64,000 nt of DNA from Promethearchaeota archaeon (GTDB lineage: Archaea > Asgardarchaeota > Lokiarchaeia > Sigyniarchaeales > SOKP01). Positions within the stretch are counted from its first letter, which is position 1; every line of letters starts with the position of its first letter. The notes beneath the pieces are model-generated. The model ran no database searches and was not told the origin of the DNA. It saw only the letters and a program-made list of their open reading frames with translations. The position numbers and the translations under genes were made by a program. Below are positions 42,700-60,458 of this stretch, in pieces. The DNA is taken from the NCBI GenBank assembly GCA_030599585.1, contig JAUVNS010000007.1, forward strand, positions 32,001 to 96,000, read 5' to 3'.

Positions 42700-43839
42700 T
42701 TACGTTTTTTCTAATTCCATTTGACTAATCGCTTTACCAGACCTAAACGGTATATCCTCTAGACTCTCACCAGCGCTGTAACCAAATTTTTCCTTAAAGG
42801 AATCGTTTAACGATTGGAAGTAAAGCGATAATGGAAGATGTTGTGGGCAATTATTATCACAATTACCGCATTCTATGCACCGGTCGGCAACATGAGCAAT
42901 CCTTGTTAATTGATAAGATTCCTTGTTGATTATCTTTTCTTTCCGTTTCTTCATTAGAATGCAATCAACGCAGTAGCATACTGGACATCCACGAATGCAC
43001 ATATTACACATTGTACATTTTTGGAACCTTTCCAATTTATCTTCCTGAGAAAGCTTGTCCCATTCTTCTAAATCCTTTGTTCTTTTTGCTAAAGCAGTAT
43101 CTTTGATTTTTTTAAGTGCTTCGGAGTGTTTTGTTCTCATATCCTCAGGTAATGGTTTTTTGTTGATCTTTGATTTTTCTACGAGATCAGCACCTTTATC
43201 TGAATATACTATTAGGACAATTTCGTCTGAATCAATAGGTAATACAAGATCGCTAACACTGATATCGGCAACAACAGGGACTTTTCGATTACAACGGGCG
43301 CAGTTTTCTGAGATTTCTAATCCGACTTCTTTTGAGCTCCCATCTTCAAATTTAAGAATTAATCCATTGTCGCCTACTTTTTCTTTGGTTACTTTAGTCA
43401 AGTCGAGTCCTTCTACTTTCTTCAATTGACGCGAAGCATTTATTACCATCCCTCTGTCCTCAAAGCCAACAATAAAAAGATTATCCATATTAATTTGTCT
43501 AATCTTTGCTAGCTCAATTATTCCGCGAGTATCACAGGGACGAGCAATAACTCCAACTTTTTCGTTCTTAGCCCCATCAACTGATTTATGTAAGAATTTC
43601 GCAGCTGTATCCGTTCTAGCGTATCCATATGCAATTAAATTTGTTAAAGGAAAAGTTGTAAGATCTTCTGACTTTTCAACAATAACTGGAGACACTGTAA
43701 ATCTATCTATAGCCCCAGATTTCTTATCTACTTTTAATTTTGCTCCAATAATCTTATCTACAAATTTTTCTTGCAAGAGCGTAGCTAATAGCTTAGGAAA
43801 ATCTTCAATTTTAATTAAATATTCATCTAATGCATCCAT
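42700..43839 (-). CDS. FdhB/FlxC-like protein (FrhB-like domain plus 2x[4Fe-4S])
   Basis: ARPCDTRGIIELAKIRQIN, CARC, ADIS, CTMCNMCIRGCPVCYCVDC, CIECGNCDNNCP. Confidence 0.8.
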   Translation of the reverse strand: MDALDEYLIKIEDFPKLLATLLQEKFVDKIIGAKLKVDKKSGAIDRFTVSPVIVEKSEDLTTFPLTNLIAYGYARTDTAAKFLHKSVDGAKNEKVGVIARPCDTRGIIELAKIRQINMDNLFIVGFEDRGMVINASRQLKKVEGLDLTKVTKEKVGDNGLILKFEDGSSKEVGLEISENCARCNRKVPVVADISVSDLVLPIDSDEIVLIVYSDKGADLVEKSKINKKPLPEDMRTKHSEALKKIKDTALAKRTKDLEEWDKLSQEDKLERFQKCTMCNMCIRGCPVCYCVDCILMKKRKEKIINKESYQLTRIAHVADRCIECGNCDNNCPQHLPLSLYFQSLNDSFKEKFGYSAGESLEDIPFRSGKAISQMELEKT

Positions 43840-49364: not shown

Positions 49365-50417
49365 TTAAAGATCGCCACCACTGACAATACTCCAGCTATT
49401 ACCGTTATATGCGTATGTCCACGTATCTCCAAGGGTGTTCCCTGGGAATCGAAACCCTCCAAATAAGATGGTTTTTTGATTATCAGAGTCATAAACCATA
49501 GAGAAATCCATTCTGTTGGAAGGATGACTTAAAGGTAGAACCTCTGTCCATTGATTGTTCGAGGGATCTAATATCCAAGTGTCTTCTATTGCTTCTCCTG
49601 GAGCTCCCGTGCGCCTTCCTCCAAAAACTATTACTTTATGATTCTGAGAATCATACGTCATTCCATGCCAATAGCGGGTGCCTGGGCTACCAGTAGTATT
49701 CAATTCGGTCCACGTATTATTTCCATAATAATAAATCCAAGTATCATCCAGTATAGATGTTGAACGACCTCCAAAGAGAATTGCTCTTTGATTTATGGGA
49801 TCGTAAACCATATTAGATCCGTATCTACCAGAAGGACTACTTAATGGATTTAATTCCGTCCATGTATTGTTGGAATAATTGTATTCCCAAGTGTCGTTAT
49901 AATGGGGTAATGAATCTTTATAACCTCCAAATAAAATAACTCTCTGAAAAATTGGATCGTAATACATAGCACAGCTCTGTCTAATCTCTGGCGCAGTATT
50001 TGGAAAAACTTCGGTCCATTGATTAGTTTGAGAGTCGTAAATCCAAATATCGTTCGTTAATCCTACATTTCCGCTCCAACCCCCAAATAAAATGGTTTTA
50101 TGGTTAATTGAATCATATACCATCGAATGACCCGATCTGGCCGAAGGTTTATTAGTTAAAATAATCTCATTCCACATGTTATCTATAGAATGGTAAACCC
50201 ACATGTCATCACGAACTTCCCAATCAGTTCCATCTTGAGTTCCTCCTCCAAAAATTATCGTTTTCTGCAGTTGAGGATCATATACTGCTCCAGGACCATA
50301 CCTACCTACGGGAGTTTGGCTTTCGATGAAAGTAACTAATAGATAAATTCCTACCAATCCCGAAGAAATAACGATTACTCCCAACACCATGGAAATGTAC
50401 TTAGTTTTCTTTTTCAT
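49365..50417 (-). CDS. Kelch-repeat beta-propeller with N-terminal TM anchor, paralog 1
   Basis: Six P.AR.G..MVYD......ILFGG...DTW.Y....W repeats. Confidence 0.9.
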   Translation of the reverse strand: MKKKTKYISMVLGVIVISSGLVGIYLLVTFIESQTPVGRYGPGAVYDPQLQKTIIFGGGTQDGTDWEVRDDMWVYHSIDNMWNEIILTNKPSARSGHSMVYDSINHKTILFGGWSGNVGLTNDIWIYDSQTNQWTEVFPNTAPEIRQSCAMYYDPIFQRVILFGGYKDSLPHYNDTWEYNYSNNTWTELNPLSSPSGRYGSNMVYDPINQRAILFGGRSTSILDDTWIYYYGNNTWTELNTTGSPGTRYWHGMTYDSQNHKVIVFGGRRTGAPGEAIEDTWILDPSNNQWTEVLPLSHPSNRMDFSMVYDSDNQKTILFGGFRFPGNTLGDTWTYAYNGNSWSIVSGGDL

Positions 50418-50594
50418 GAGAAAATACTCTGGTCATTGTATTAAATTAGCTTCCCTAACTATTCTAATAAATTGATTTTACGTAAACTTATATATATTTC
50501 TATTCGAAATACCTTTAATGGAAACCATTAAAATTCTTTTTAACAAACAGTGAATTCTCTATTTATTAAGAAATAAAAGGAGATTCGACTTCTA

Positions 50595-51644
50595 CTAAGG
50601 ATCGTTGCCTTTCACGATATTCCAGCTATTACTGCCATGATTAAATACCCAAGTATCTCCAAGATTATTATCAGTGCCCCTTATTCCTCCAAAAAGGAAA
50701 GTTATTTGAATATTAGAGTCGTAAACCATTGTAAAAAATAATCTATTGGAAGGGGAAGTTTCAGGTAAGACCTCAGTCCATTGGTTGTTGGATGGATCAA
50801 ATATCCACGTATCTTCCAATGCTCCCGCATGGCTTCCCCCGAAGACAACTATTTTGTTGTTATTAGGATCGTACACCATGCCATGCCAGTAACGGGTATC
50901 AGGTTTACTTGTAATAAATATCTCCGACCAGGAGTTATTACCATAATAGTAAACCCAAGTGTCATCCATTGTTGTTGTTGAGCGACCTCCAAAGAGAAAA
51001 CCTCTATTGTTTTTAATTTCGTATACAATTTTTGATCCATACCTAACAGGTGGGCTATTTGAAGGGTTGAGGCTAACCCAGGAATTATTGGAATAAATAT
51101 ATTCCCATGTATCTCTAAAATAACTACTAAAACTTCTGAAACCTCCAAATAATATAACTTTCTGTGCGTTAGAATCGTAATACATCGAATGGTCTTGTCT
51201 ATTAGTGGGATGATTCAAGGGAAAAAATTCTGTCCACTGGTTTGTTTGGGAGTCGTAGATCCAGGTATCGCTCGCCAAGCCTACATTTTCTACCCAACCC
51301 CCAAATAAAATTGTTTTATGGTTAATTAAGTCATATACCATCGAGTGACCCGATCTCGCCGAAGGTTTCACAGTTGGATTAATTTCAGTCCATATGTTAA
51401 ATGTTGGATCGTAAAGCCACATGTCATTAAATACTTCAGAACCACTTGTATCTTGATATCCTCCCCCAAAAAGTATCATTTTTTGTAGAACGGGATCGTA
51501 AACCATCGCAGAACCGTACCTCGCTGAAGGAGAAGCATTTTGAATAACAGCAAAAAAAAATAGAGTTCCAATTGTTCCGGAGGAAATTATAATTCCTACT
51601 AAACTTAAAATTAAAATTTTAATTCTTCTCTTCATGAAATCCAC
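50595..51644 (-). CDS. Kelch-repeat beta-propeller with N-terminal TM anchor, paralog 2
   Basis: Same repeat pattern; shares PSARSGHSMVYD.INHKTILFGGW with paralog 1. Confidence 0.9.
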   Translation of the reverse strand: MDFMKRRIKILILSLVGIIISSGTIGTLFFFAVIQNASPSARYGSAMVYDPVLQKMILFGGGYQDTSGSEVFNDMWLYDPTFNIWTEINPTVKPSARSGHSMVYDLINHKTILFGGWVENVGLASDTWIYDSQTNQWTEFFPLNHPTNRQDHSMYYDSNAQKVILFGGFRSFSSYFRDTWEYIYSNNSWVSLNPSNSPPVRYGSKIVYEIKNNRGFLFGGRSTTTMDDTWVYYYGNNSWSEIFITSKPDTRYWHGMVYDPNNNKIVVFGGSHAGALEDTWIFDPSNNQWTEVLPETSPSNRLFFTMVYDSNIQITFLFGGIRGTDNNLGDTWVFNHGSNSWNIVKGNDP

Positions 51645-51807: not shown

Positions 51808-54570
51808 ATGACTGAAACTACGGATACAACACAAAATGAGAAAGCCGAGAAGATACTCTCAAGCGATATCATAAAAAATGTTATTGCAAATGCAAACTAT
51901 TGTTATAATTGCAATCGTTGCGTAAATGTATGTCCAGTATCTTATTTAGACCTATTTTATCCAAGAAATTTGATTACAGATTTAACTTTCTTATCGCCTG
52001 AAGAAGCACTAAAGAATAATAATATTTGGGATTGCCTCACATGTGGATTGTGCACCGAATATTGCCCAATGACTAAAGGTAAGACTGGTGTTAACTTCAC
52101 TGAGATTATAAAGGAACTTCGAACATTGACTTCGGAATACGAGCCTTTACAAGAGACTCTGCGAAGTTGTAATCACGATAGGGTTTATTCCAGTATACCA
52201 AAATTAATGGCAGATGATAAGATAAAATTCACCAATAAGCTTGGATTCTTAGAAGGAACCGGATTGAAAACAAAAAGCGAAGGGGAACTCGCTTACTTTA
52301 TGGGTTGTGTACCGTTTTTAACTGGGACGGCACCTTGCGTTGTAGGATGTCCAGCTGGAGTAGATGTTCAAGGATACGTTTCCTTAATCTCTGAAGGAAA
52401 ATTTCAAGAATCCATAGATTTAATAAGAGAAATGAACCCTTTACCTTATTTGTGTGGAAGAATTTGCACTGCTCAGTGTGCTTTGAACTGTAATCGTCAA
52501 CATCACGATGATCCCGTGGCAATTCGAGAGTTAAAACGATTTGTATCTGATTATGAAGCTGCGCATCCAAACAATAGTAAAATACAGCCCGTTAAACAAA
52601 CTAAAGAAAAAGTAGCAATTATCGGGGCTGGACCAGGAGGATTATCTGCAGCTTACTACCTTGCGCGAATGGGATACAAACCTACAATCTATGAAAAAGG
52701 TGATAAAACGGGTGGAGTCGTAAGATATGGTGTTCCTCAATATAGGCTATCTGATGAGGCGTTAGACCACGATGTAGATTTCATAAAAAGTATGGGAGTT
52801 GAAATTGTACTGAACAAGGAGTTTGGAGCTAATTTCACCCTTGAAGATCTTAAGAAGGAAGGATTTAAAGCAGTGTTTATTGCGGTAGGTCTGTATGTAC
52901 CAAAAACTTTGCGACTGGAAGGTGAGGATTTACCTAATGTTCATGTTGCTATAGATTTTCTCTTGGATCGGAAATATGGTTGCGCAGAAGACCCTGAAGA
53001 ATTTAAAGGTAAAACTTTTGGCATAATCGGGGGAGGAGCAGTCGCCGTTGATGTAGGAGAAACCGCTGTGAGATTAGGTGCTACGAAAGCTGATTTCGTA
53101 GATATATTAACTGAGGAAGCGCTTAAAAATGTGCTTAAAGATTTGCACGAGGCCGAGAGAGAAGTAATGGAATATCATTTTACTACTTCGACAAAAAACA
53201 TAACTCAAGAACCTAATGGAAAGTTAGCCTTAAATTGTTATAAAATTGAATGGGGAGAACCCGATCCTGAAACGGGAAGACGCCCCCTGAATAAAGTGGA
53301 AGAGTCTGATTTTAAGATCGTTGTAGATCATGTCGTTACTGCTATCGGGCAAGGACTTGATGTTGTCCCCATTAATGCTGCAACTGAAAGCAAGTTAAAA
53401 ATTGATCGAGGCAGAATTATAGTTGATCAAGTAACTTTTGAAACTAGCATTCCCGGCGTTTTTGCAGGTGGAGATATCATTAATGATTCACTTATGTGTG
53501 CCGTTGATGCTATAGGAAATGGTAGAGAAGCTGCGTACTCAATCGATCGCATCTTCCGTGGAATTGATTTAAAAGAGAGTAGGATTAGAATGAAAGAATT
53601 AAAACGTTCTACTATCCCTAAAAAATACATTCAGGTAAATTCTTGTCAAGAAATGAATTTTATGCCTGGAGAAGAAAGATTGGTATGTTTTGATGAAATG
53701 GAGTTAGGATATACCGAAGAACAAGCAATTAAAGAGGCAAATCGTTGCTTAAATTGTAATTGTTGTAGTAATAGCGATCAAATCCCTGAAGATTATGACG
53801 CAGCTTTAGATTCCTCAGGAATAATGATTGCAAACTATGGAAACCAAGCTAACATGCCTTCTTATAACTCTCCAGATTATTTAACTATCCCTAAGAGCGT
53901 AATCGGAATCCTAAATCAAAACAATATTGTACCAGTTGTTTTGCCCGAAGAAAAATGTTGTGGTCACGACATTGTTTGGCAAGGCGATATGGAATCCTTT
54001 GAGAAATTAGCGAAGTATAATGTCAAGTTGTTTAAAGACGCTGGTGTAAAAACAATTGTATTCAGCTGCCCTGAAGGGTATTACACTTGGAAAGATGAGT
54101 ATAAAAAACTGTTTAAAAAAAGCGAAGATTTCGATTTTGAGATTTATCACATTTCAGAATACATCTTGAAAGAAAATCTTCTAGAAGATATATCTTTTCC
54201 AAACCTGGGAGAGGTTAAAGTTACTTATCATGATCCGTGTAGACTCGGTAGAATGAGTAATGTTTACGACGCCCCTCGTGAAGTTTTGAACAAAATACCG
54301 GGCATACAACTACTCGAGATGGAAAATAATAGAGTAGATGCTGATTGTTGCGGTGTGTCAGCCTATATTTCATGCAATCAAAATTCCAAACTACTACAAG
54401 CGTCAAGAATAAAACAAGCAATTGAAACTGGTGCGGATTATTTAATTACCACCTGTCCGAAGTGTTTAACGCATTTTAACTGCTATTTGAATGAAAATAA
54501 GGAACTTAAAAACAAAATAAAGGTAACGGATTTACTAAGCTTTATTGGTAAAATGCTTTTTATGCAGTAA
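51808..54570 (+). CDS. HdrD/GlpC-like protein (2x[4Fe-4S] + CCG domains) with an inserted GltD/NfnB-like FAD/NAD(P) module
   Basis: CYNCNRCVNVCP, CLTCGLCTEYCP, YFMGC | PCVVGCP, CGRIC, GAGPGG, YGVPQYRL, FAGGD, RCLNC | CCGH, YHDPCRLGR, CCGV, TCPKC. Confidence 0.88.
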   Translation: MTETTDTTQNEKAEKILSSDIIKNVIANANYCYNCNRCVNVCPVSYLDLFYPRNLITDLTFLSPEEALKNNNIWDCLTCGLCTEYCPMTKGKTGVNFTEIIKELRTLTSEYEPLQETLRSCNHDRVYSSIPKLMADDKIKFTNKLGFLEGTGLKTKSEGELAYFMGCVPFLTGTAPCVVGCPAGVDVQGYVSLISEGKFQESIDLIREMNPLPYLCGRICTAQCALNCNRQHHDDPVAIRELKRFVSDYEAAHPNNSKIQPVKQTKEKVAIIGAGPGGLSAAYYLARMGYKPTIYEKGDKTGGVVRYGVPQYRLSDEALDHDVDFIKSMGVEIVLNKEFGANFTLEDLKKEGFKAVFIAVGLYVPKTLRLEGEDLPNVHVAIDFLLDRKYGCAEDPEEFKGKTFGIIGGGAVAVDVGETAVRLGATKADFVDILTEEALKNVLKDLHEAEREVMEYHFTTSTKNITQEPNGKLALNCYKIEWGEPDPETGRRPLNKVEESDFKIVVDHVVTAIGQGLDVVPINAATESKLKIDRGRIIVDQVTFETSIPGVFAGGDIINDSLMCAVDAIGNGREAAYSIDRIFRGIDLKESRIRMKELKRSTIPKKYIQVNSCQEMNFMPGEERLVCFDEMELGYTEEQAIKEANRCLNCNCCSNSDQIPEDYDAALDSSGIMIANYGNQANMPSYNSPDYLTIPKSVIGILNQNNIVPVVLPEEKCCGHDIVWQGDMESFEKLAKYNVKLFKDAGVKTIVFSCPEGYYTWKDEYKKLFKKSEDFDFEIYHISEYILKENLLEDISFPNLGEVKVTYHDPCRLGRMSNVYDAPREVLNKIPGIQLLEMENNRVDADCCGVSAYISCNQNSKLLQASRIKQAIETGADYLITTCPKCLTHFNCYLNENKELKNKIKVTDLLSFIGKMLFMQ

Positions 54571-54713: not shown

Positions 54714-55625
54714 TTGCCGTATGAGATTTTAGAGAAAAAAGAACTAGGAAGTAGCAAAACTATTTATGAAATGGTATTACGCACTCCATTAATTGCTAAG
54801 AAAGCTCACGCCGGAAATTTTGTTCTAATAAGAATTAATGAAACTGGAGAAAGGATTCCATTGACTATTGCCGATTACGATAGAGAGAAAGGGACTATAA
54901 CATTAGTAATTCAGGTGGTGGGTAAGAGTACTAAGTTACTCTGCAATCAAAATGTTGGAGATCAAATACTTGATGTCGTAGGGCCTTTAGGAAACGAAAT
55001 ACATGTGAAAAAGTATGATAATCCTATAGTAATTATTGGGGGTGGAATCGGTATAGCTCCTTGTTTTCCTCAAGCAAAAGAGCTCAGAGACGCAGGAAAT
55101 GAAATTATATCCATTTTAGGAGCCAGAAATAAAAGTCTTCTTATTTGGAAAGAAAAAATGAAAACTGTGAGCGATGAATTAATTGTCACTACTGACGACG
55201 GAAGCGAGGGAATAAAGGGAGTTGTTACAGATCCGCTTAAACAAATTATGCAAAAGAGGAAAATAAGTCTTGTAATCGCTATCGGACCTTTAATTATGAT
55301 GAAGTATGTTGTTCTTACTACTAACGGGTCTGGAGGTTTGCCTAAAGTAAAAACCTTTGTTTCTTTAAACACAATCATGGTTGACGGGACTGGTATGTGC
55401 GGGTGTTGTCGGTTTTCTACGCTCGAAGGTGATATTCAGTTTGCATGTGTAGACGGCCCAGATGTCGATGGACATATCGTTGATTTTGATAACTTATTAA
55501 AGCGCGCTGATAGATTTCTTGAACAAGAGAGAGAGTCTTTGGAATGCTACGACGAAGAATGCAGAGCATTAGAACAACAAAAAAAGGAGGTTGTGAAGAA
55601 TGGAGATAAAAAGATCTACAGTTAG
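54714..55625 (+). CDS. nfnA: NfnA/SudB small subunit (FAD, NAD, [2Fe-2S])
   Basis: GERIPLTIAD, VVGPLG, GGGIGIAP, TDDGSEG, MVDGTGMCGCCR, ACVDGP. Confidence 0.9.
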   Translation: MPYEILEKKELGSSKTIYEMVLRTPLIAKKAHAGNFVLIRINETGERIPLTIADYDREKGTITLVIQVVGKSTKLLCNQNVGDQILDVVGPLGNEIHVKKYDNPIVIIGGGIGIAPCFPQAKELRDAGNEIISILGARNKSLLIWKEKMKTVSDELIVTTDDGSEGIKGVVTDPLKQIMQKRKISLVIAIGPLIMMKYVVLTTNGSGGLPKVKTFVSLNTIMVDGTGMCGCCRFSTLEGDIQFACVDGPDVDGHIVDFDNLLKRADRFLEQERESLECYDEECRALEQQKKEVVKNGDKKIYS

Positions 55626-58329
55626 AATACTAATTGAGAACAAGGACAAAATTTTAAAAGCAGGGAAATTCAAGGAAGCTGAATTTAAAAAATTAATTGA
55701 TGATTTAACTATTGCCGAACTTTACCAAAAAAAAATTATTGAAGGAATCGAAGAATACGGAACCATTGATAATCCTCGGTTGTTATCAGAGCTAGGAACT
55801 TCAGAAAAAAAAATTGCCAGCACAATTGAATATCTTAAAGAATTTGGGTATTTAGAAGCTTATGGGGAGATACCGCGATTTTTTAATGCGGAAATTCAAA
55901 ATTTGAAACAGTATGGCATTCTTCCAAATGTAAAAATTATAAGAGACAGTAATTTATGTTGTGGGTGTGGATCGTGTGTGTCGTTATGTCCTGTTAGCGC
56001 AATAACATATTCAAAGGGAACATTCGAGATTGACGAAGAAGTATGTATCCGTTGCGGTTTGTGTTATACATGCTGTCCGAGATCTTTTTTCCCAAAAACT
56101 TTAGATGCTTCTGAGGATAACGATAATGAAAACATTAATTATTCAAGTCAATTTAATTATTATCATGAAATAATTACAGCTCAGACCACAAATACTGATA
56201 TTACTCAAGTAGCTCAAGATGGTGGTATAGTTACCACTCTCCTGAAAATGGCTTTCGATCAAAATCTAATTGACGGAGCTTTGGTCGTAACTGAAGGATT
56301 AGAGCCTTTGAACCCTTTACCCATATTTATAGAGCGAGAAGAGGACCTTCTAAAAACAGCGGGAACAAAATACACCAATTCACCTATTTTAAAAGAACTT
56401 TACAAGTACAGAGATAGTAAAAAAATCGCTGTAGTTGGAACTCCTTGTATTATGAAAGCTCTTAAAAAGTTATCTTTTTACCCCTTGCACAACCCGTTTT
56501 ACGAAAATATTGCAATTAAAATCGGTCTGTTGTGTTCGGAGTCGTTTGATTACTCAGAAATTACTAAACTACTGAAGAATGAATTTCAATCCACTCCCGC
56601 TGATGTTAAAAAAATGGATATTAATAAGGGTCGTTTTTTCATCTACAACCACGATGGTACCGTTTTAGATATCCCTATAAAAAAAATTAAGAAATATGGT
56701 CGTTTAGGTTGCTTTTTCTGTGAGGATTTAACAGCAATACACACCGATATTTCCGTAGGCTCGATCGGTTCCGATGTTGGTTGGTCAACAGTGTTCATAC
56801 GAACAGAAAAAGGAGCTGAGTTCTTTCAAAAAGCTTTAGATCTTAATATGATTGTGAAGAAAGAGATCGAAGAAGATAGCAAAAGTTTCAATTCACTTAG
56901 TAGGATAGCTAAATTCAAATTAAAAAGCTATGAAGAACTTCACCGTGTTGAAATGAAACAACAAGAACCAAATGTAAGGATAACAAACTTTGAAGAAGTT
57001 CCACTTGGTTTAACCGAAGAAATGGTTGAAATTGAAACTCAACGATGCCTTCAATGTGGAAATCCTCTCTGTATTTCCGGGTGCCCTGTTAATATCAAAA
57101 TTCCTCAATTTATCAAGTTACTAAAACAAAAAAAATACATTGAAGCTCTATATAAGATTAAGGGAGATAATTTATTACCCGCTATCTGTGGGAGAGTTTG
57201 TCCCCAAGAAACTCAATGCGAATTAGTGTGCATTATGAATGGTCTTGGAGAACCAATAGCAATAGGTCATTTAGAGCGTTTTATAGCAGACTGGGAAAGG
57301 AAAAATAAACTTAAGGAGTGTCCTGAGTGTGCAGCACCTAAAGGGATTAAAGTAGCTGTTATTGGTGCTGGACCAGCGGGACTAGCTTGTGCTGGAGAGC
57401 TGGCAATGAATGGTTATGAAGTTACTATTTTTGAAGCTTTTCATGCCGGAGGGGGTGTTTTAATCTACGGAATACCTGAGTTCAGACTCCCTAAAGAGAT
57501 AATCAAGAGCGAAATAGAGACTCTAGAAATGCTCAATGTTAAAATGGAATACAACTCCATCATTGGAAAAACATTAACTATCGAAGATTTAAGAGACATG
57601 GGTTTTAAAGCATTTTTTATTGGAGTTGGAGCAGGACTTCCCATTTTCTTGAAAGTATCTGGTTTATCTTTAACCGGCGTCCTTTCGGCGAACGAATTTC
57701 TTACGAGATCAAATTTAATGAAAGCTTTTAGATTTCCAGATTACGATACCCCCGTTAAAGTTGGAAAAATCGTGACTGTTATAGGTGGAGGAAATACCGC
57801 ACTAGATTCTGCGAGAACTGCATTAAGGTTAGGTGCTGAAAAAGTAATTATCGTTTATCGAAGATCTGAAGCGGAAATGCCCGCAAGAAAAGAAGAATAT
57901 CATCACGCATTGGAAGAAGGTATAAAATTTCAATTCTTAACTAATCCCGTTCAATTTATTGGCGACGACAACGAGAATGTAACTCAAATGAAAGTTATTA
58001 AAATGAAATTAGGAGAACCTGACGAATCGGGGAGGAGAAGACCCGTTAGAATTGAGGGTTCTGAATATGTGATAGACACAGACACAATTATCATCGGAAT
58101 CGGAACAGGAGCTAATCCTATTTTAACCAAGTCAATCCCCGACTTAAAACTGAATAAATGGGGCTACATCGAAATAGATGAGAATGGCCAGACAAATATT
58201 AAAGGTGTTTTTGCTGGTGGAGATATTGTAACTGGAGCTGCTACTGTCATTACAGCGATGGGAGCAGGAAAAATGGCTGCACATGCAATAGATAAGTATT
58301 TACAAGAAAATTATTTAGATAAGAATTAG
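55600..58329 (+). CDS. Fusion of an FpoF/FrhB-like F420-binding module to NfnB/SudA
   Basis: CCGCGSCVSLCP, CIRCGLCYTCCP, AQDGGIVT, GTKY, GTPC, IGLLC, CFFC, DISVGS; then NFEEV, RCLQC, CGRVCPQETQCE, GAGPAG, YGIPEFRLP, GGGNTA, YRRS, FAGGD. Overlaps the nfnA end by 26 nt. Confidence 0.9.
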   Translation: MEIKRSTVRILIENKDKILKAGKFKEAEFKKLIDDLTIAELYQKKIIEGIEEYGTIDNPRLLSELGTSEKKIASTIEYLKEFGYLEAYGEIPRFFNAEIQNLKQYGILPNVKIIRDSNLCCGCGSCVSLCPVSAITYSKGTFEIDEEVCIRCGLCYTCCPRSFFPKTLDASEDNDNENINYSSQFNYYHEIITAQTTNTDITQVAQDGGIVTTLLKMAFDQNLIDGALVVTEGLEPLNPLPIFIEREEDLLKTAGTKYTNSPILKELYKYRDSKKIAVVGTPCIMKALKKLSFYPLHNPFYENIAIKIGLLCSESFDYSEITKLLKNEFQSTPADVKKMDINKGRFFIYNHDGTVLDIPIKKIKKYGRLGCFFCEDLTAIHTDISVGSIGSDVGWSTVFIRTEKGAEFFQKALDLNMIVKKEIEEDSKSFNSLSRIAKFKLKSYEELHRVEMKQQEPNVRITNFEEVPLGLTEEMVEIETQRCLQCGNPLCISGCPVNIKIPQFIKLLKQKKYIEALYKIKGDNLLPAICGRVCPQETQCELVCIMNGLGEPIAIGHLERFIADWERKNKLKECPECAAPKGIKVAVIGAGPAGLACAGELAMNGYEVTIFEAFHAGGGVLIYGIPEFRLPKEIIKSEIETLEMLNVKMEYNSIIGKTLTIEDLRDMGFKAFFIGVGAGLPIFLKVSGLSLTGVLSANEFLTRSNLMKAFRFPDYDTPVKVGKIVTVIGGGNTALDSARTALRLGAEKVIIVYRRSEAEMPARKEEYHHALEEGIKFQFLTNPVQFIGDDNENVTQMKVIKMKLGEPDESGRRRPVRIEGSEYVIDTDTIIIGIGTGANPILTKSIPDLKLNKWGYIEIDENGQTNIKGVFAGGDIVTGAATVITAMGAGKMAAHAIDKYLQENYLDKN

Positions 58330-59594: not shown

Positions 59595-60458
59595 TCATTT
59601 ACTCCCTTGGGGACACACTTTTAAACAGTTAGAGCAATAGTTGTTGTTCAACAGACTTTCCATACACTTTGAACGATCAATGTGAGTAAAAATGCCAGAC
59701 CCTTTTACCTTCTCAATTGGTTCTTCGTAAATAGCTTCACCTAAGCACTTTTCTATACAAACTCCGCAATTCTCGCAAAAATCTTCCATATCACTAAAAT
59801 CTACTTTCCTTGTTTCGGGGATATTAGCATCCGTAGTTATAGCGCTCCACCTTTGTCTCATGCCAAACTCAGGACTCATAATTAACCCATTCCTCCCCAA
59901 TATTCCTAACCCCGCAGCTACAGCGTGAGCTGTAAACAAGAGTTTTCCTCCAAATGGATGATGAGCTTCCGTCTTGTAACCTTTCTCTTGTAGAAATTGC
60001 GTTAGTTCGATCGTTTTTTCTCCTAAGTCGTAATACACTCTAAACGCCTCAATGCTAACGTGAATGCTTGGAGCTGTTTTAATCTTATCCCACGCCATTT
60101 CCATCCCAAGAATTATCGTGTTCTTTCCTATAATTGGAAGATTTTTGAAAATATAGTTTTCTAACACAGGTGTATATCCTATAAGTTCAATACCTTTTTC
60201 TTTAGCTAAATTCTCAAACTCTTTCCATAATTCAGGTGTTGTCTCGGTCTTATTATTATCACCATTTTGATATTTCGTTTTGTTAGCCTTTTGAAAGCCT
60301 TTAAATGTCCCTGTTAAATACTTACTATATTCTTTTGCGGTTTCTCTGTCCAACTTCTGTTCAGTTGATAATTTCATCGTAAAAAGCTCTTTTGGAACAA
60401 CAAAGACCAAGTCCTCGTTCTTTCCAACGTAAGTCGGCTCAATTTTTTCAGTTTCCAT
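59595..60458 (-). CDS. Reductive dehalogenase / QueG-like 4Fe-4S protein
   Basis: HAVAAGLGILGRNGLIMSPEFG, ITTD, FCENCGVCIEKC, CSNCLKVCP. Confidence 0.8.
   Translation of the reverse strand: METEKIEPTYVGKNEDLVFVVPKELFTMKLSTEQKLDRETAKEYSKYLTGTFKGFQKANKTKYQNGDNNKTETTPELWKEFENLAKEKGIELIGYTPVLENYIFKNLPIIGKNTIILGMEMAWDKIKTAPSIHVSIEAFRVYYDLGEKTIELTQFLQEKGYKTEAHHPFGGKLLFTAHAVAAGLGILGRNGLIMSPEFGMRQRWSAITTDANIPETRKVDFSDMEDFCENCGVCIEKCLGEAIYEEPIEKVKGSGIFTHIDRSKCMESLLNNNYCSNCLKVCPQGSK

Follow-up and report, generated by a model that had tools for sequence, protein, structure and literature searches.

Can a bifurcating transhydrogenase end its low-potential branch on coenzyme F420? This question is raised by a locus at positions 54714–58329 of a 64,000-nucleotide stretch of DNA from a Promethearchaeota archaeon (assembly GCA_030599585.1, contig JAUVNS010000007.1, positions 32,001 to 96,000), hereafter called the window, in which the gene for the small subunit of an Nfn transhydrogenase overlaps a gene whose product joins a ferredoxin domain and an FrhB-type flavoprotein domain to a complete NfnB. 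The NfnAB enzymes of Thermotoga maritima and Pyrococcus furiosus are made by the same two-gene set, with flavin adenine dinucleotide (FAD) plus a [2Fe-2S] cluster in NfnA, and FAD, two [4Fe-4S] clusters and an NADPH site in NfnB. Unlike in those enzymes, here a 447-residue extension is fused, without a linker, beside the domain that carries the ferredoxin-facing clusters. Our preferred reading, which we regard as fairly likely, is that the pair forms an NfnAB-type bifurcating transhydrogenase with a built-in F420 oxidoreductase, coupling NADPH, NAD(H) and F420.

An intact NfnAB core

The small-subunit gene, nfnA (54714–55625, plus strand; 303 aa, TTG start; FAD, NAD(H) site, [2Fe-2S]), overlaps by 26 nt an open reading frame for a 909-aa protein (55600–58329, plus strand), whose domain matches give, in order, an N-terminal domain, a ferredoxin domain, FrhB and NfnB. 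Just such an overlapping pair had been described in an earlier note on this DNA, and both reading frames lie at the coordinates it gave. The gene model is supported by the initiator methionine of the 909-aa protein, which is nearly invariant among the aligned homologues, by an even base composition across the FrhB/NfnB junction and by the presence of nfnA directly 5′ of the fusion gene in all 27 fused loci examined.

NfnA matched PRK06222, the model for sulfide/dihydroorotate dehydrogenase-like FAD/NAD-binding proteins, with 365.5 bits (cut-off 220). Alignment to P. furiosus NfnS (5JCA_S; 282 bits) brought the cluster motif DGTGMCGxCR...FACVDGP into register, and the [2Fe-2S] motif (D-x4-C-x-x-C...C) of the window's protein, MVDGTGMCGCCR...FACVDGP, aligns with the same motif in both 5JCA_S and 4YLF_A.

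NfnB begins at about residue 448 (base ~56941) and is complete from there, as the earlier note had placed it. Its N-terminal domain, which bears the proximal and the distal [4Fe-4S] cluster, spans residues 449–570 (56944–57309, plus strand; Pfam Fer4_20 over residues 460–570, E 5e-39), followed by the FAD and NADPH domains at residues 584–903 (57349–58308, plus strand; Pfam Pyr_redox_2 over residues 584–890, E 1e-38). The NCBIfam model gltA/NfnB, TIGR01316, matched residues 457–901 with 583 bits (cut-off 471.75), and a six-frame search of the host genome with this model scored the fusion at 585 bits and returned no other NfnB above the cut-off. The C-terminal 460 residues aligned to T. maritima NfnB (4YLF_B) with E 4e-167 and, in the printed alignment, ~62% identity; the predicted NfnB fold matched 5JCA_L and 4YLF_B with target-normalised Foldseek TM-scores of 0.86–0.88.

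Conservation was judged in an alignment of 47 homologues of the 909-aa protein. The residues assigned to the two NfnB clusters by alignment to 4YLF_B (C483, C486, C491 and C495; C534, C540, E541 and C544) are invariant, as are E537 and Q539 of the CPQExQCE motif, whose Glu presumably serves, as in published structures, as a ligand of the proximal cluster. The dinucleotide-binding glycines G589/G591 and G729/G731 are equally fixed. The three motifs on which the earlier note had relied, YGIPEFRLP (Y623..P631), CPQETQCE (C534..E541) and YRR(S) (Y753-R755), are present and invariant. Every sequence-level defining feature that we looked for was found, which places the core within the NfnAB family.

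A ferredoxin–FrhB module preceding NfnB

The 447 residues that precede NfnB comprise a helical domain, a ferredoxin domain with two [4Fe-4S] clusters, and FrhB with its FAD and one [4Fe-4S] cluster. The helical domain (residues 1–110; 55600–55929, plus strand) is possibly HTH-like. A winged helix-turn-helix (wHTH) had been suggested for it, and HTH_36 (Pfam, E 0.031) and sub-threshold language-model look-alikes among wHTH families (score 0.82) point faintly that way, whereas in the AlphaFold model residues 7–103 are all-helical, without wing strands (predicted local distance difference test, pLDDT, 85–93).

The ferredoxin domain (residues 112–165; 55933–56094, plus strand) was recognised by Fer4_10, Fer4_7 and related Pfam models, with the Fer4 dicluster match covering residues 112–162. 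Its two CxxCxxCxxxC motifs supply eight invariant cysteines (C120, C123, C126 and C130; C149, C152, C155 and C159), in agreement with the two clusters that had been read from the sequence.

The FrhB-type flavoprotein domain (residues 187–445; 56158–56934, plus strand), with FAD, one [4Fe-4S] cluster and a putative F420 site, had been called intact, and this holds: both Pfam halves were found, FrhB_FdhB_N (PF04422) over residues 192–265 (E 1.7e-20) and FrhB_FdhB_C (PF04432) over residues 274–425 (E 9.9e-41), and the FAD loops and cluster ligands are conserved. The ligands C283, C312, C371 and C374 are invariant. The FAD loops of Methanothermobacter marburgensis FrhB have been named as QDGG, G73-T77 and I132-F138 with a Cys ligand (PMC3930138), and their counterparts here are QDGG (206–209), GTKY (255–258) and I308-F316 with C312. 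A lid region forming a substrate channel is seen in the AlphaFold model. Taken together, all 20 cysteine ligands of the 909-aa protein are invariant.

The N-terminal half aligned to Methanosarcina barkeri FrhB (6QGR_B) with E 8e-53, and to 8RIU_B and 8RJA_E with E ~1e-52, where the match takes in the ferredoxin domain; the alignments to 8RIU_B, 8RJA_E and 7NP8 begin within that domain. The FrhB alignments stop at residues 442–445, and the alignment to 4YLF_B begins at residue 5 of that chain, so that the end of the one abuts the start of the other and FrhB and NfnB appear to be joined with essentially no linker. The AlphaFold model of the whole protein reached a pLDDT of 79.7 and a predicted TM-score (pTM) of 0.68, and its Foldseek matches were mostly to the NfnB half.

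Related enzymes with F420 modules

The two structures matched through the ferredoxin domain belong to F420-reductase subunits of Candidatus Ethanoperedens thermophilum, that of its carbon monoxide dehydrogenase (CODH; 8RIU chain B, zeta) and that of its formylmethanofuran dehydrogenase (Fwd; 8RJA chain E), which have the same ferredoxin-plus-FrhB module. In that organism the subunit is reported to make the normally ferredoxin-coupled CODH and Fwd reduce F420 (PMC11493965), with the N-terminal ferredoxin domain anchoring it and relaying electrons out of the host enzyme's distal cluster (Lemaire et al. 2024, PMC11493965). The rewiring logic at the present locus would be the same, a module docked on the distal cluster of a normally ferredoxin-coupled enzyme. 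In Ethanoperedens, an alkane-oxidising euryarchaeon, the module sits on CO2-forming enzymes as a subunit of its own; in the Asgard archaeon, it is joined covalently to a putatively bifurcating transhydrogenase and has an additional N-terminal domain of ~110 residues.

FpoF/FqoF and the N-terminal part of Fsr (PDB 7NP8/7NPA), which are the F420H2 dehydrogenase modules of Fpo and of F420-dependent sulfite reductase, show the same order of ferredoxin and FrhB domains, and Fsr is likewise one chain, with the module fused to its catalytic partner, a sulfite reductase, and with a path that runs from FAD through the FrhB cluster and the ferredoxin-domain clusters to the clusters of the partner. Where Fpo has a membrane complex as partner and Fsr a sulfite reductase, the partner here is NfnB. 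StnABC (8OH5), NfnABC (9BOV, 9N5U) and the HdrA–NfnB insertions of ANME-1 (PMC9012536) show the NfnB/GltD flavoprotein to be itself a portable module; in them, NfnB-like domains are joined to Bfu/HydBC-type or HdrA units, in no case with an FrhB/F420 module.

No description of an FrhB–NfnB fusion was found in the literature searched, from which most subscription-journal papers were outside coverage, leaving absence unproven; within that compass the earlier note's remark that no such enzyme has been characterised agrees with what we found. According to a review, ferredoxin or flavodoxin is "to date always" the second, low-potential acceptor when flavins bifurcate electrons (Buckel and Thauer 2018). 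We would suggest, tentatively and as something short of an even prospect, that this is the first enzyme of flavin-based bifurcation to send its low-potential electrons to F420, a two-electron hydride carrier, and not to ferredoxin or flavodoxin.

Distribution of the fusion

When 5.8 billion clustered proteins were searched, ~100 full-length homologues (roughly 900–935 aa, 56–92% identity) came up in which both FrhB and NfnB are present. Those with names come from metagenome-assembled genomes (MAGs) of Lokiarchaeota or Promethearchaeota and are annotated 'NADPH-dependent glutamate synthase' (NCBI and JGI). Among 1.84 billion representatives, the full architecture formed one single 50%-identity cluster, with all later matches being to NfnB alone.

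The earlier note had called for a survey of this architecture. In 151 evenly sampled genomes of the same phylum (Asgard), the full-length fusion occurs in 17 of the 26 genomes of the window's own family, in four genera, and in none of the 125 genomes of other families, which have ordinary NfnB genes (open frames of 470–500 aa). The fusion is thus conserved and, in this sample, confined to the window's family, with two fused paralogues in some genomes. Eighteen named contigs carry it, all from uncultured MAGs. Submitters assigned a few of the fusion contigs to Hermod- or Hodarchaeota; these labels are to be read with care, because one contig so labelled (L052) and a genome of the window's genus (tree rows G065/L031) have identical NfnB halves.

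Two variants were seen besides. A shorter fused form in another genome (G040:C36:376489-379026, locus L068; 864-aa frame, 60% identity) skips, in its match to the window's protein, residues ~314–366 in the FrhB lid region. A protein from a single 10 kb Logan contig (P0166, 821 aa) has a different FrhB/GltD design, with a GltD-like Fer4_20 plus Pyr_redox_2 unit of the PRK12771 type inserted between FrhB_N and FrhB_C of an FpoF-like protein.

Gain and loss of the module

In a maximum-likelihood tree of NfnB halves (38 rows, LG+C20), 24 of the 25 fused sequences form one clade (support 100/99); the remaining one (L060) falls outside it on a long branch, where its placement is uncertain. Canonical NfnBs of the same family (genomes G104, G049 and G138) fall just outside the fused clade, and G138 has both the fused and the canonical nfnAB. 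Nested deep inside the fused clade (support 100/97) is an unfused NfnB from a genome of the window's genus, G071, which is 85% identical to the NfnB half of the window's protein. Its locus (L067; G071:C82:1-4000) has the same context, with a gene for a GltD-like protein with CCG domains (GltD-CCG; see below), nfnA and nfnB in this order and nfnB starting 65 nt after nfnA. Because of this nesting and the shared context, the G071 form is a secondary loss—a natural deletion—of the 447-residue module.

The overall picture looks like an nfnAB duplication within the family that captured a pre-existing module, which could be shed again. The likely donor would be a free-standing protein of ~500 aa with the same N-domain, ferredoxin and FrhB domains, and the closest free-standing copy in the window's genome (499 aa, C50:63320-64819) is 40% identical, with 35% identity in the N-domain. 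This 499-aa gene is one of two FrhB-type genes in an Hdr-like cluster (G000:C50:57827-64819; L039:327-7319), together with genes for a 1028-aa HdrA-like flavoprotein and a 373-aa CCG (HdrB-like) protein.

That the fusion replaced canonical NfnAB in this lineage we reject, given the canonical nfnAB in G104 and G049, the two forms together in G138 and the reversion in G071.

F420 metabolism in the host and its family

Gene presence in the host and its family was judged against profile cut-offs; the window's genome comprises 4.85 Mb in 52 contigs, with an estimated contamination of 8.9%. Genes for CofH (466 bits, next to a CofG-like gene), CofE (260 bits) and CofD (321 bits), F420 biosynthesis genes of the kind that the earlier note had asked about, are present, as is one for the F420-dependent Mtd (355 bits). 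The F420:NADP+ oxidoreductase Fno was not found in this genome (20.5 bits, cut-off 149.8), and neither were FrhA (144 bits, cut-off 392.5) or a Mer above its cut-off. FrhB-type genes number 11, and host FrhB modules also sit on other normally ferredoxin-linked systems, namely the Hdr-like cluster and a gene beside a 2-oxoacid:ferredoxin oxidoreductase (OFOR). Within the window's family, CofH is present in 23 of 25 genomes and Fno above the cut-off in none of 26; these counts are consistent with F420 use and are not independent evidence for it.

The gene beside the OFOR, directly downstream of its alpha and beta genes, encodes a 605-aa FrhB–PyrK-like fusion (G000:C24:331122-332939; L041:5322-7139), with an FrhB domain (PRK09325, 185 bits) and a PyrK/NfnA-like FAD/NAD unit with [2Fe-2S] (PRK00054, 270 bits, above cut-off). 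This fusion is a further candidate for an F420:NAD(P) link, or for an F420-linked OFOR.

We also considered the idea that the NfnB fusion replaced Fno. It draws weak support from the missing Fno of the whole family, is set back by the lack of Fno from other F420-making Asgard families with an unfused NfnB, and is weakened further because the FrhB–PyrK-like fusion is another candidate for the same link.

Proposed reaction

In the reading we favour, NfnA (FAD, [2Fe-2S]) would handle NAD(H), the NfnB part, with its bifurcating FAD (b-FAD) and its proximal and distal [4Fe-4S] clusters, would handle NADP(H), and the added module would occupy the distal-cluster outlet at which free ferredoxin normally docks. 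NADPH would give a hydride to the b-FAD of NfnB. The first electron would travel from there via the [2Fe-2S] cluster and the a-FAD to NAD+. The second would pass the proximal and then the distal cluster of NfnB, next both clusters of the ferredoxin domain and then that of FrhB, to reach the FrhB FAD, which would gather two electrons before giving F420 a hydride. As a net, reversible reaction this would amount to 2 NADPH + NAD+ + F420 = 2 NADP+ + NADH + F420H2, and F420 is the probable third substrate, in place of ferredoxin or alongside it.

Textbook potentials put the NADPH, NADH and F420 couples near -320 to -360 mV, and since the three are nearly isopotential, the reaction would lie close to equilibrium at standard conditions. 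Were the NADPH pool reduced and the NAD+ pool oxidised, F420 would be driven to a strongly reduced state. For confurcation, the reverse direction, F420 would be a less favourable partner than ferredoxin. Reduced F420 could serve the F420-dependent step or steps of the tetrahydromethanopterin (H4MPT) Wood–Ljungdahl pathway, for which Mtd is present and a bona fide Mer was not found. The earlier note had held that the low-potential branch is hard-wired to F420: the architecture, the intact NfnAB and the F420 genes of the host fit that view and support it in part, and the hard-wiring itself, like F420 as the substrate, the electronic contact between the modules, the coupling by bifurcation and the direction, we infer from sequence.

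Several observations weigh against this proposal. F420 lies ~100 mV above ferredoxin, so that under standard conditions there is no obvious energetic rationale for bifurcation onto it, and some FrhB-family proteins, such as reductases of the chlorophyll pathway, do not use F420. The FrhB domain scores below the FrhB cut-offs (PRK09325, 251.5 versus 269 bits; TIGR03289, 226 versus 331.5) and far under that of the FpoF model NF040616 (151 versus 475 bits); as the curated cut-offs for both are missed, the module is, by these profiles, a relative of FrhB and FpoF and an orthologue of neither. The AlphaFold model reaches a pTM of only 0.68. Two fusion-bearing genomes, G129 (94% complete) and G138 (99% complete), showed no CofH; several other F420-making Asgard families are also without Fno and yet keep an unfused NfnB; and the FrhB–PyrK-like fusion of the host could equally link F420 to NAD(P). 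Finally, the module-less G071 variant with its intact nfnAB shows the module to be an add-on and not an obligatory rewiring, and since it was lost there while G138 has the two forms side by side, the NfnB part may remain able to use free ferredoxin. For the same two reasons, to say that the module supplements ferredoxin may be as apt as to say that it replaces it.

Competing readings

The best-surviving rival, which we consider unlikely and still worth serious attention, is a non-bifurcating F420H2:NAD(P)+ oxidoreductase, in which the FrhB module would exchange electrons with the NfnB flavin through the Fe-S chain and stand in for the missing Fno, with NfnA as an alternative NAD(H) port that is not obligatorily coupled. 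It would account for the lack of Fno from the host and from all 26 family genomes, and by our own reckoning bifurcation between nearly isopotential couples is energetically unneeded. There is a precedent too, as the Nfn homologue NfnAB2 of P. furiosus appears not to bifurcate (Buckel and Thauer 2018). What it does not explain well is the retention of nfnA, with its cofactor motifs intact, beside the fusion in each of the 27 loci, or of the Glu-containing proximal cluster motif in an NfnB with ~62% identity to that of T. maritima; and the other F420-making Asgard families that are without Fno have no fusion.

Less probable again is that the FrhB-like module does not use F420 at all, serving as an FAD/Fe-S entry point for some other substrate or partner, or in a structural or regulatory role, with the Nfn remaining ferredoxin-dependent. 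The existence of FrhB-family members that work without F420, the missed NCBIfam cut-offs for FrhB and FpoF, the uncharacterised N-terminal domain ahead of the module and the fact that G071 does without it would all fit this account. Against it, the best matches of the module are F420-reactive throughout (FrhB, FpoF and Fsr together with the F420 reductases of Ethanoperedens), its FAD loops are present, as is the lid region of the substrate channel, and the host has F420 synthesis genes with no other F420:NAD(P) link found except FrhB-type proteins.

The public annotation would make the protein the small subunit of a glutamate synthase (GOGAT), here one using F420, which we think very improbable. 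The name of TIGR01316, a model of the NfnB/SudA family, is a legacy one. What partners the fusion gene is nfnA and not a GltB-type large subunit, and Azospirillum brasilense GltD is a far weaker match than NfnB (275 versus 558 bits). On the strength of the nfnA partner and the identity to characterised NfnB, we reject the assignment, even though glutamate synthases that depend on F420 and contain FpoF-like subunits were proposed for methanogens (PMC3448663).

An assembly chimera or gene-calling artefact, for which we found nothing beyond the 52-contig assembly and its estimated contamination, is dismissed as scarcely credible, since the same full-length frame recurs in ~100 protein clusters from independent sources, in 17 of the 26 family genomes and on 18 named MAG contigs, with uniform composition at the junction, conserved synteny with nfnA in 27 of 27 loci and invariant cofactor ligands, which also disposes of the caution that the earlier note had raised on this point.

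Neighbouring redox genes

Upstream of nfnA, on the same strand, Pfam and NCBIfam matches delimit a gene for a 920-aa protein (51808–54570, plus strand; Fer4, GltD-like and 2xCCG, HdrD-like), which combines an HdrC-like dicluster, a GltD-like flavoprotein module and two CCG domains (HdrD/TfrB-like). It is probably a separate enzyme. A 910-aa paralogue of this GltD-CCG protein is encoded elsewhere in the genome (C9:65343-68075). In a survey of the upstream neighbours of 21 fused loci with 4-kb flanks (L044-L061 plus the L067-L068 context), a GltD-CCG gene lay 5′ of nfnA in L044, L045, L048, L054, L055 and L061 and in G071, and was not found upstream in L046, L049, L050 or L053. We therefore do not regard the GltD-CCG gene and the fusion as a conserved operon, the arrangement being seen in only around half of the loci whose flanks are long enough.

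Downstream of the fusion, on the opposite strand, lies a gene for a 287-aa Fe-S protein (59595–60458, minus strand), with a sub-threshold match to the reductive dehalogenase/QueG type (88 bits, cut-off 160). It is a recurrent convergent neighbour, seen downstream of the fusion in 11 related loci; the loci listed with it are L030-L034 and L044-L046, L049, L052, L055 and L057. Further upstream in the window, a 379-aa protein (42700–43839, minus strand) has a divergent FrhB_FdhB_C domain followed by a C-terminal dicluster, in FdhB-like order; its gene adjoins selenocysteine HdrA/MvhD genes and counts among the 11 FrhB-type genes of the host. Two adjacent genes for Kelch-repeat beta-propeller proteins of 350 and 349 aa (49365–51644, minus strand) sit between AOR/ferredoxin genes and the redox cluster.

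Implications for Lokiarchaeia

An Nfn ending on F420 would, if true, break the rule of Buckel and Thauer that the second acceptor is ferredoxin or flavodoxin, and would tie the NADPH, NADH and F420H2 pools together in one tightly coupled reaction. Lokiarchaeia could then hold F420 far more reduced than NADPH, driving the step or steps of the H4MPT Wood–Ljungdahl pathway. For work on the enzyme itself, the module-less G071 variant is a natural comparison partner for the fused form.

The bearing on Asgard metabolism is wider. NfnAB is listed as a ferredoxin-linked enzyme in the preprint on Asgard isolation (Imachi et al. preprint), and Asgard metabolic models, which bear on syntrophy-based scenarios of eukaryote origin, treat Nfn in this way. 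Because the host has CofH, CofE and CofD and 11 FrhB-type genes, with no Frh hydrogenase and no Fno found, F420 may be a central electron currency in these archaea, wired directly into bifurcating enzymes much as the Ethanoperedens module is wired into its partners. If F420 holds this central place, predictions for the redox balance of these archaea, for their yields of hydrogen and formate and for the energetics of their carbon fixation would change.

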